Of a stretch of 64,000 nt of DNA, positions 16,709 through 18,811 are shown piece after piece. The DNA is taken from the NCBI RefSeq assembly GCF_041146345.1, contig NW_027191417.1, positions 620,001 to 684,000 of the forward strand. The letters run 5' to 3'. The notes below the pieces were generated by a model. The model was not told where the DNA came from. It did not search any database and saw nothing but the letters and a program-made list of their open reading frames with translations. Source of the DNA: Neodothiora populina. Its lineage: Eukaryota. The position numbers were made by a program, and so were the translations under genes. Numbering within the stretch: the first letter of the stretch is position 1; every line of letters starts with the position of its first letter.

Positions 16709-18811
16709 CATGTCTTGGCGTAACCAGGGGATCACGGGCAGCAACAACATACCTTTGGGTAGCCGTCGTAGATTTGCGGGCGATGGTGGCGATGAAGGCA
16801 CCCCAACCGGAGATGACTTCTCTGAGGAGCCTGAAGTCAGCCTCAAGAGAGGTCGCAGTCCCGTTCGAGGTGAGTTCCCACGAGGAGACAAGCAGGAATG
16901 CTATCGCGCGACAGTGGACAACACTGACACCAGCCTTGCAGAGCTGAATCCCGATGGTACCAAGAAGAGAAAGAAGCGCAACCGATGGGGCGATTCTACC
17001 GACAACAAGGCAGCAGGTCTGATGAACCTGCCGACTGCTGTGCTCGGAAACATGACCAGCGAGCAGTTGGATGCCTACACATTGCATCTGCGTATCGAGG
17101 AGATCAGCCAGAAGCTGAGGATCAACGACGTCGTCCCAGCGGATGGTGACAGGTAAGCATAGCCCCTTCCCGATTTCTTGCGCACAGTGATGCCGATGCT
17201 CATCTCGATTCCCAGATCTCCTTCGCCCGCTCCTCAATACGACAACTTCGGCCGACGTGTCAATACTCGCGAATATCGCTACAAGAAGCGTCTCGAGGAT
17301 GAGCGCCACAAGTTGATCGAGAAGGCGATGAAGATCATCCCGGGCTACCACCCTCCTTCTGACTATAGACGGCCCACCAAGACTCAAGAGAAAGTCTACG
17401 TGCCAGTCAACGATTATCCAGAAATCAATTTCAGTATGATTGCTAACCCTCTAACCTCTAACAACTTCCTTTTCCTTCCCTTCTCTACCCCTTTCGGTGT
17501 GCAAGTAGCGGTACATTGAGCACTTCAATCTGCAATGTGCACACGCGTCTGGCTACATCATCTCATCATGACATATTTACAGCTACTAACACATAGGGGT
17601 TTTTCCTACTAACAGTTGGCCTCTTGATTGGTCCTCGTGGTAACACACTCAAGAAGATGGAAACCGAATCTCAGGCGAAGATTGCCATTCGCGGCAAGGG
17701 TTCCGTCAAGGAAGGAAAGGGCCGATCCGACGCTGCGCACACCAGCAATCAGGAGGAGGATCTCCACTGTTTGATCATGGCAGACACCGAGGAAAAGGTC
17801 ATTAAGGCCAAGCAGCTGATCCACAATGTCATCGAGACTGTAAGTACCGCGACACCTGCTCTTTCCGTTGGACCAAGGATTAATTCTTCGCAGGCAGCTT
17901 CCATTCCCGAAGGCCAGAACGAGCTCAAGCGCAACCAACTCCGTGAACTCGCAGCGCTCAACGGTACTCTCCGTGACGACGAGAACCAAGCCTGTCAGAA
18001 CTGCGGACAGATTGGTCACCGCAAATACGACTGCCCCGAGCAGCGCAACTTCACCGCCAACATCATCTGTCGCGTGTGCGGCAACGCTGGTCACATGGCA
18101 AGAGATTGCCCCGACAGACAGCGCGGACAGAACTGGCGCAACGACGGACCCGCTGGAGCACGACCGGTTGCTGGCAGACTCGAGCCTGCGGATACAGAGT
18201 TCAACAACCTCATGGAAGAGCTTGGAGCTGGAGGTGCCATCGCCGCAAGTGCACCTAGAGGCGCGATCGAAGCTGGCGCCAACGGCGACTCACGCGCGCC
18301 GAAGCCTTGGGAACGTGGCCCGACTGGAGCATCCGCACCGTGGAACCAACCCCGGGAAGAACGCCAGGGTGGATCCGGCGGCCCGCCTCCATGGGCTGGA
18401 GGAGGTGGTGGTGGTGGCGGCGGCGGCGGAGGTCACAGATCCCACGGCGGCGGCGACTCGTATGGCGGAGGTGGTTACGGACATCACTCCTCGGGTGGCT
18501 ACGGCGGTGGTGGCAGCGGTGGCGCTGCGCCATGGCAACAACAGTCGCACGGTGGCCAGCAACATGGATACGGTCGCTACAATGGTGGTGGTGGTGGTGG
18601 CGGCGGTGGTAACGGTGGATCATATGCTTACGAGGCTCCCGGATACGACCAGGGTGGCTACGGTGGACCACCTGCTCCTCCCGGCATGCCTGGTGCTGCA
18701 CCATGGCAGCAGCAAGGCTATGGCTCGGCTCCTCCTCCACCTCCACCTACAGATGCGGCACCCCCGCCACCGAGCGACAATGCGCCTCCTCCGCCTCCCC
18801 CAGGCGCGTAG
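16709..18811 (+). CDS. MSL5: Branchpoint-bridging protein / splicing factor 1 (KH-QUA2, two Zn knuckles, Pro-rich tail)
   Basis: [20 protein letters not shown] motif [17 protein letters not shown]2 [14 protein letters not shown] and two CCHC knuckles. Introns at 16870-16941, 17153-17215, 17434-17615 and 17840-17893. Confidence 0.97.

Follow-up and report, generated by a model that had tools for sequence, protein, structure and literature searches.

We analysed a window of 64,000 nucleotides (nt) of Neodothiora populina DNA (NCBI RefSeq assembly GCF_041146345.1, contig NW_027191417.1, positions 620,001 to 684,000 of the forward strand). Positions 16710-18811 of the window hold the gene of the branchpoint-binding protein (BBP), known as SF1 or MSL5. 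This work concerns the third intron of that gene, which splits the KH domain and carries five copies of the core branch motif CTAAC. An earlier reading made from the letters alone (the sequence-only reading) had proposed that this intron is an autoregulatory splicing switch. Positions given below are those of the window, and all features described lie on its plus strand.

The five exons (16710-16869, 16942-17152, 17216-17433, 17616-17839, and 17894-18811) join into an open spliced frame of 576 amino acids. In the spliced translation, a basic RxRW motif, which we take to be of the U2AF-ligand type, lies upstream of the SF1 helix-hairpin domain. Pfam places this domain (SF1-HH, PF16275) on exons 2 and 3 (E 2e-12 and 5e-24), KH-I_KHDC4-BBP (PF22675) on exon 4 (E 1e-19), and two zf-CCHC domains on exon 5, and a Pro-rich C terminus is seen in the translation. 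Among solved structures, exon 4 matches yeast BBP best (4wal/4wan, E 5e-20), together with human SF1 (1k1g, E 3e-19). Identity between the spliced protein and Aureobasidium proteins is 73-80%, and the exon junctions agree with those of 22 Pezizomycotina orthologues, the intron 3 junction included. This places the source organism among the ascomycetes, close to Dothideomycetes. Because of the domain set, the solved relatives, the identity to Aureobasidium, and the shared junctions, we identify the gene from its sequence as the MSL5/SF1 orthologue and a true BBP.

Intron 1 (16870-16941, 72 nt) has one CACTGAC with the branch A 14 nt before the acceptor, and introns 2 and 4 have no CTRAY at all. 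The length of intron 1 is a multiple of three, and so is that of intron 4 (17840-17893, 54 nt). As intron 4 also lacks an in-frame stop, its retention would add 18 residues instead of truncating the protein.

Architecture of intron 3

Intron 3 (17434-17615) is 182 nt long, is of phase 1, and lies between PEINF and (I)GLLIGPRG of the KH domain, as the open gene model and the shared junction agree. It begins with GTATGA (17434-17439), a non-consensus donor with A at +6, and ends in ...AACAG, which at the acceptor reads TACTAACAG. CTAAC occurs five times, starting at 17443, 17451, 17458, 17586, and 17609. The first three copies form a donor-proximal cluster (TGCTAAC, CTCTAAC, CTCTAAC; 17441-17462). 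The last two belong to TACTAAC at 17584-17590 and 17607-17613, which are the only two such heptamers on both strands of the 64-kb window. All of these positions had been given before, and each was recovered on the sequence.

The stretch between the two groups of motifs comprises a pyrimidine-rich tract read from the sequence (17463-17494), followed by a predicted central hairpin (GGTGTGCA.../...TGCACAC, with an inner ATTGA/TCAAT stem; 17495-17547). Further downstream, TACTAAC is followed by a TAG (17584-17596) that ends 7 nt past the branch A, and this A is 26 nt before the 3' splice site. From its sequence and place, the TACTAAC at 17584 is the probable working branch site of intron 3. A short G/T-rich spacer (GGGGTTTTTC, 17597-17606, read from the sequence) separates it from the second TACTAAC, which is fused to the 3' splice site (17607-17615). 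Searching 16600-18900 on both strands with the Rfam 15 covariance models gave no match at E up to 1.

Failure to remove the intron correctly is predicted to cost the KH domain. Retention leads to a first in-frame TGA at 17517-17519 and a product of 224 amino acids, which lacks KH-QUA2 and the zinc knuckles and keeps the RNRW motif and the entire SF1-HH. If the TAG ending at 17596 serves as the acceptor, 19 nt are added and a TAA is met at 17641-17643, giving 211 amino acids. Both outcomes are as previously described. The true acceptor at 17615 does overlap the second TACTAAC, as had been noted, but it is not the sole AG that preserves the frame: the AG ending at 17582 does so too (33 nt), while bringing in a stop.

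The density of the motif is exceptional in the window. Five of the 11 plus-strand CTAAC of the 64 kb fall within the 182 nt of intron 3, and elsewhere the maximum per 182 nt is one on the plus strand and two on the minus strand. In first-order Markov simulations, 0 of 200 runs reached five CTAAC per 182 nt, the maximum being four, and the Poisson probability of the count in intron 3 is about 2e-9 per window. Chance is excluded as the source of the cluster in the window.

Conservation of intron 3 in filamentous ascomycetes

Metagenome contigs were scanned with the KH exon aligned to the 22 orthologues, which gave 336 confirmed places, and the best 80 of these were analysed. Together with the window they make 81 sequences, which reduce to 59 distinct introns and to 26 clusters at 80% intron identity. 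The named proteins closest to those of the loci include ones from Aureobasidium, Hyaloscypha, and Acarospora (90-92% identity), and hence three classes are represented: Dothideomycetes, Leotiomycetes, and Lecanoromycetes. Scans of genome contigs and viral contigs for further relatives found none.

Every one of the 80 related loci is interrupted at the identical codon by an intron of 126-264 nt with 3-7 CTAAC. Intron 3 is present in 81/81 sequences, with a median length of 183 nt and a mean of 4.6 CTAAC, whereas in the same genes intron 2 has a median of 53 nt and a mean of 0.44 CTAAC, and intron 4 of 52 nt and 0.45. Intron 3 is thus three to four times as long as its neighbours. Intron 4 is missing in 11 loci, one of them being the cDNA-like L050 discussed below.

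The beginning of intron 3 changes more slowly than the coding sequence next to it. Between cluster representatives, identity is 41% at the shared four-fold sites of exon 4 and 77% over the first 30 nt of the intron. The first 34 positions hold 36 bits of information in intron 3, compared with 14 bits in intron 2 and 12 bits in intron 4, and positions 7-22 hold 0.8-2.0 bits per position as against at most 0.6 bits in these two introns. The donor hexamer of the 26 cluster representatives is GTATGA in 16, GTACGA in 7, GTATGC in 2, and GTACGG in 1. T at +6 occurs in none of the 26 clusters in intron 3, compared with 13/18 for intron 2 and 15/19 for intron 4. Judged by its sequence, the intron 3 donor is weak in a conserved manner. 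Directly behind it, CTAAC stands at +9/+10 in 25/26 clusters, and 24/26 have at least two CTAAC within the first 45 nt. A stretch rich in pyrimidines is found at the matching place across the alignment of the 59 distinct introns; its sequence itself is not conserved.

The hairpin is conserved as a structure. Over 26 orthologous introns, with that of the window excluded, nine pairs are formed in 90.2% of cells compared with 24-61% in slid controls. Seven of the pairs change on both sides, and the covariation was reached by 0 of 500 shuffles. The hairpin of the window alone has a minimum free energy of -21.7 kcal/mol (z = -1.59), which is weak taken by itself.

The 3' end is equally well kept. 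CTAA[CT] followed by YAG is found in 56/59 distinct introns, the YAG ending 7 nt past the branch A in 50 and 6 nt past it in 6; counted by clusters, the branch site and its nearby YAG are kept in 23/26. The distance from branch A to 3' splice site is 17-29 nt among the distinct introns, and the anchored consensus around the branch site is CA..rACTAACACnTAGCT. CTAA lies within the last 8 nt in 49/59 distinct introns (TACTAAAG in 28, ACTAACAG in 11, and others) and in 21/26 clusters. The sequence-only reading had named orthologue conservation of the CTAAC cluster and of TACTAACAG as a test of its proposal, and both are conserved by these counts.

The cluster is also specific to its place. In 286,911 nt of flanking DNA, both strands counted, no 200-nt window exceeds three CTAAC. 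The value of three is reached outside intron 3 only in L022, L025, L054, and L061, each time roughly 130 nt before the ATG of BBP. In L054 and L061, this stretch finishes with ...CTAACTAACGCACAG right before the ATG, and it may be an intron of the 5' untranslated region with doubled branch sites.

Since fungal introns are usually short and not alignable between classes, the survival of sequence, layout, and hairpin over such distances points to strong selection.

Other properties of the intron were looked at in the same alignment. Pairing of the donor with a U1-like stretch inside the intron is unsupported overall, as duplexes compared with those of shuffled interiors gave a mean z of -0.4 with 2/26 clusters below -1.64. 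In L004 and L018, which are related lineages, the donor region pairs with the central intron at positions ~86-103 (duplex z of -2.3 and -2.8), and the two pairings differ by compensating changes (GGAAC with GTTC vs GAGAC with GTCT); no pairing of this type stands out in the other 24 clusters. As to a small nucleolar RNA or another processed RNA within intron 3, the alignment showed no C/D-type boxes and Rfam gave no match. A stwintron is not indicated either, as no conserved internal donor adjoining an acceptor stood out in the alignment, to which no formal test was applied. In examples inspected by eye, without a systematic count, the first AG after the donor-proximal motifs and the pyrimidine tract lies in or next to the hairpin loop (17520-17524 in the window; loci L001-L079), where the loop sequences are GAAAG, CAAG, TGAG, and GGAG. 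This AG could be a cryptic acceptor that the loop either presents or masks.

Retained transcripts and truncated gene models

L050 is a contig of 1,922 nt. Compared with the related genomic contigs L064, L013, and L053, it precisely lacks introns 1, 2, and 4, and intron 3 is present. One of its frames reads exons 1-3 into intron 3, and another reads exons 4-5 to the natural stop. By this arrangement, L050 is a cDNA-like, nearly full-length mRNA of a relative in which only intron 3 is retained. Twenty-one read-through proteins from non-NCBI sources have exons 2 and 3 cleanly joined, and exons 1 and 2 as well wherever these are readable; their contigs measure 914-3,575 nt. These sequences are suggestive of further retained-intron mRNAs. 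Retention of intron 3 brings in an in-frame stop in 58/59 distinct introns.

One contig is unusual in another way. L004:1-1068, compared with L019, is 1,068 nt long, and its ends overlap by 120 nt like those of an assembled circle. It is without introns 1 and 2 and has intron 3, and the end of its exon 4 is connected to a point within exon 1 that comes after CTCTAAC...TAG. The contig may represent a back-spliced circular RNA or an assembly artefact.

A protein collection was searched with exon 3 extended into the intron, and 118 proteins were returned, 117 of them new (P0122-P0238). All 117 run from PEINF into SMI(A/T)NPLT, the peptide read in this frame from the conserved donor-proximal DNA. 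Named read-through models come from Aspergillus, Penicillium, and Penicilliopsis; from Trichoderma, Sarocladium, and Cladobotryum; and from Clarireedia, Xylogone, and Physcia. Because named proteins of Eurotiomycetes and Sordariomycetes contain the read-through peptide, the donor-proximal cluster extends to these classes too, on the evidence of peptides and not of DNA. Beyond the first 8-10 residues, the read-through tails vary in sequence and in length (19-103 amino acids).

Many public models named "branchpoint-bridging protein" or "splicing factor 1" end at 176-330 amino acids, inside intron 3. Such truncation is an annotation error that recurs and is linked to the unusual donor. Residues derived from the intron are also present in several models of full length (Trichoderma, Cladobotryum, Sarocladium).

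Proposed feedback by BBP and its alternatives

The facts fit a regulated, deliberately inefficient intron. We are confident that intron 3 is a conserved regulatory intron with a retained isoform. Beyond this, we favour, at a probability of roughly 0.55, the reading that it is an ancient cis-regulatory intron under purifying selection by which the cell sets BBP output at the level of splicing. That BBP itself drives a negative feedback through the intron has, in our view, an even chance of being right. BBP is put forward as the regulator because the gene encodes BBP and the motifs are the BBP consensus.

Such a feedback could work as follows. The productive branch site would be the ACTAAC that lies some 24 nt before the acceptor, and the extra motifs would be candidate BBP sites unable to support productive catalysis, since those on the donor side are too near the donor (10-30 nt) for a normal lariat and the last overlaps the acceptor. 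Abundant BBP would fill the extra motifs, so that U1 at the weak donor would be tied into dead-end complexes or the 3' AG would be hidden from U2AF; the acceptor-fused motif would put BBP where U2AF must bind. With these sites filled, intron 3 would be retained or mis-spliced at the nearby YAG. The resulting transcript would yield no KH-bearing protein and would probably be degraded by nonsense-mediated decay (NMD), and BBP would fall. When BBP is scarce, the productive site alone would be used and full-length BBP would be made. We had also considered ranking the sites by affinity, with weak decoys set against a strong true site. UGCUAAC, CACUAAC, and GACUAAC are among the listed SF1-binding sequences, with U4 and A6 critical (PMC3064769). 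The ranking was dropped as an argument because the first motif is AACTAAC in many lineages, a sequence reported to be a good SF1 binder (PMC3064769).

The complete proposal is that BBP gauges its own level by its constitutive motif, with non-productive copies of the branch site placed on both splice sites of a structured intron, so that excess BBP leads to retention and to a KH-less, probably NMD-targeted transcript, and that this arrangement has been kept across the main classes of filamentous ascomycetes. Taken as a whole, we put it slightly below even odds. The divergence of these classes is estimated at hundreds of millions of years.

The autoregulation proposed by the sequence-only reading gains from the conservation, from the retained transcript L050, and from the stop that retention brings in nearly everywhere, but some of its details are doubtful. 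As the extension by the nearby YAG is in frame in only 7/56 introns, the YAG is not a consistent device for introducing a premature stop. This weighs against the feedback proposal, as do the following points. The mid-intron site, a CACTAAC at the 3' foot of the hairpin found in 22/26 clusters, is lost in the window organism. In the one public run that contains this sequence (X1, share 0.11), the contigs continue unbroken from exon 3 into intron 3 and look like DNA. On the side of mechanism, CTAAC also pairs with U2 small nuclear RNA (snRNA), and the sensor could therefore read U2 or general splicing capacity. BBP near the donor could equally aid U1 via Prp40, which would activate and not repress. 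The acceptor-fused motif could be a working branch site instead of a block, as in Yarrowia (PMC2911113) or as in human XPC intron 3, whose branch A is at -4 (PMC3064769). The mid-intron site, the conserved hairpin, and the conserved non-consensus donor are features that the sequence-only reading did not contain.

An activating role would draw on the very same motif conservation. Many branch motifs could make the BBP pre-mRNA a good substrate when BBP is scarce, or BBP could recruit U1 through Prp40 at a weak donor of a long intron, which would need such help; the bridge from BBP over Prp40 to U1 is established yeast biology. More BBP would then give more productive or buffered splicing and not repression. 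We consider this unlikely. The motifs that lie 10-30 nt behind the donor or overlap the acceptor cannot work as ordinary branch points, a positive feedback would be unstable where the factor is essential, and a retained-intron mRNA is observed. Were efficiency the aim, a short consensus intron such as introns 2 and 4 would be the better choice, but all 81 sequences have kept a long intron with a weak donor. A little less likely again is a sensor of something other than BBP, in which the CTAAC copies are decoys for U2 snRNA, or the hairpin and its flanks bind another factor, and retention reports spliceosome capacity, temperature, or stress. The identity of CTAAC with the U2 pairing site, the covarying hairpin, and the conserved stretches outside the branch motif (CA..r before the branch site, TAGCT after it) are in keeping with it, and branch-like decoys are reported to modulate 3' splice-site use in human cells (PMC5727392). 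A generic capacity sensor, however, need not sit in the BBP gene, and the cluster is in that gene and is absent both from 287 kb of fungal DNA flanking the loci and from the rest of the 64-kb window.

The purpose of the intron might instead be the KH-less isoform itself, a U2AF-binding N terminus with the helix-hairpin domain acting as a regulator or a dominant negative. The retention product has just these parts, and many annotated and predicted proteins are of exactly that form. The tails, however, diverge after their first 8-10 residues, which the conserved DNA motifs dictate, and the conserved 3' half of the intron is left unexplained. As the main purpose this is improbable, and it is compatible with, not opposed to, feedback by BBP. 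The idea that an ordinary long intron with redundant branch sites has arisen by chance or persisted neutrally can draw on the fact that fungal introns do carry CTAAC-like motifs, and on nothing more. Position-specific conservation beside synonymous sites near saturation, and control introns that look different, already contradict it, and we give it next to no credence.

The reading we prefer, a feedback in which BBP restrains the splicing of its own intron 3, has partial parallels in known systems. Intron-based autoregulation is familiar from yeast, with RPL30, RPS14B, RPL22, RPL7B, YRA1, and SUS1 as examples. The likeness is that a protein controls the splicing of its own intron and that a non-consensus signal together with intronic structure sets the sensitivity. 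The difference is that special structures are bound there, whereas for the BBP intron ordinary branch sequences and the branch-recognition factor are presumed. The closest known kind is the unproductive splicing of splicing-factor genes, coupled to NMD or in the form of regulated intron retention. Its fungal example is an SR gene, srp2 of Neurospora crassa, whose long intron is retained and whose retained isoform is stabilised in an NMD mutant (PMC4379411). Its intron 3 shares with the BBP intron that it lies in a splicing-factor gene, is unusually long and prone to retention, introduces a premature stop, and has a position conserved over large distances; it differs in that, by its authors' account, its sequence is not notably conserved among Aspergillus species, whereas sequence and hairpin of the BBP intron are kept across classes (PMC4379411). 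More generally, the candidate elements of the BBP intron differ from those of SR-type unproductive splicing in being copies of the constitutive branch motif at both splice sites.

QKI, a STAR protein and KH-QUA2 relative of BBP, represses splicing via paired ACUAA branch sites, and single-celled eukaryotes are stated to lack QKI (PMC13004596). The CTAAC-N3-CTAAC behind the donor of the BBP intron and its paired 3' motifs resemble bipartite STAR elements, and the pair at 17443-17455 fits the spacing of the STAR element (ACUAAY plus a UAAY half-site, 1-20 nt), which a dimeric STAR protein reads. We know of no dimerisation domain in BBP. The binder would also be of a different kind here, namely a constitutive factor on its own gene.

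In Yarrowia lipolytica, a single motif combines the branch point with the 3' splice site as a genome-wide rule, with CTAAC 0-2 nt from the acceptor AG as in TACTAACAG (PMC2911113). BBP intron 3 differs in also conserving a second, conventionally placed branch site. A fusion of the Yarrowia type is not the general rule of the window organism, because the branch A of intron 1, the sole other recognisable motif in the gene, lies well away from its acceptor at the distance given above. Intron detention driven by decoys (decoy exons, U2AF2 decoy sites) is alike in that non-productive copies of core signals restrain splicing; those cases are mammalian, involve cryptic exons or pyrimidine tracts, and include none with branch-site copies in the gene of the branch binder (PMC5932609, PMC5727392).

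The sequence-only reading knew of no description of this element in filamentous fungi, and our literature search likewise found no report of BBP/SF1 autoregulation or of intron 3, subscription journals and supplements lying outside the search. Checks within PMC4379411, PMC4549623, PMC6547761, and PMC13004596 gave no report of either, and MSL5, BBP, and SF1 are unmentioned in a report of 17 conserved fungal RNAs (PMC8216456).

If the feedback is real, it would be the first described feedback circuit at the step of branch-site recognition, and few intron sequences known from fungi would be conserved as deeply as this one. Among core splicing factors, SR and hnRNP proteins are well-known cases of homeostasis by unproductive splicing; to our knowledge, no such case is known for the factor by which the branch site is first recognised. 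Intron 3 further indicates that a branch site and an acceptor can stay fused in organisms whose ordinary introns are built otherwise. Should BBP control intron 3, this would provide a model, simple and open to testing, for the tuning of splicing by decoy core signals, would account for the many truncated "branchpoint-bridging protein" models in public collections, and would offer a handle on BBP dosage in filamentous fungi.

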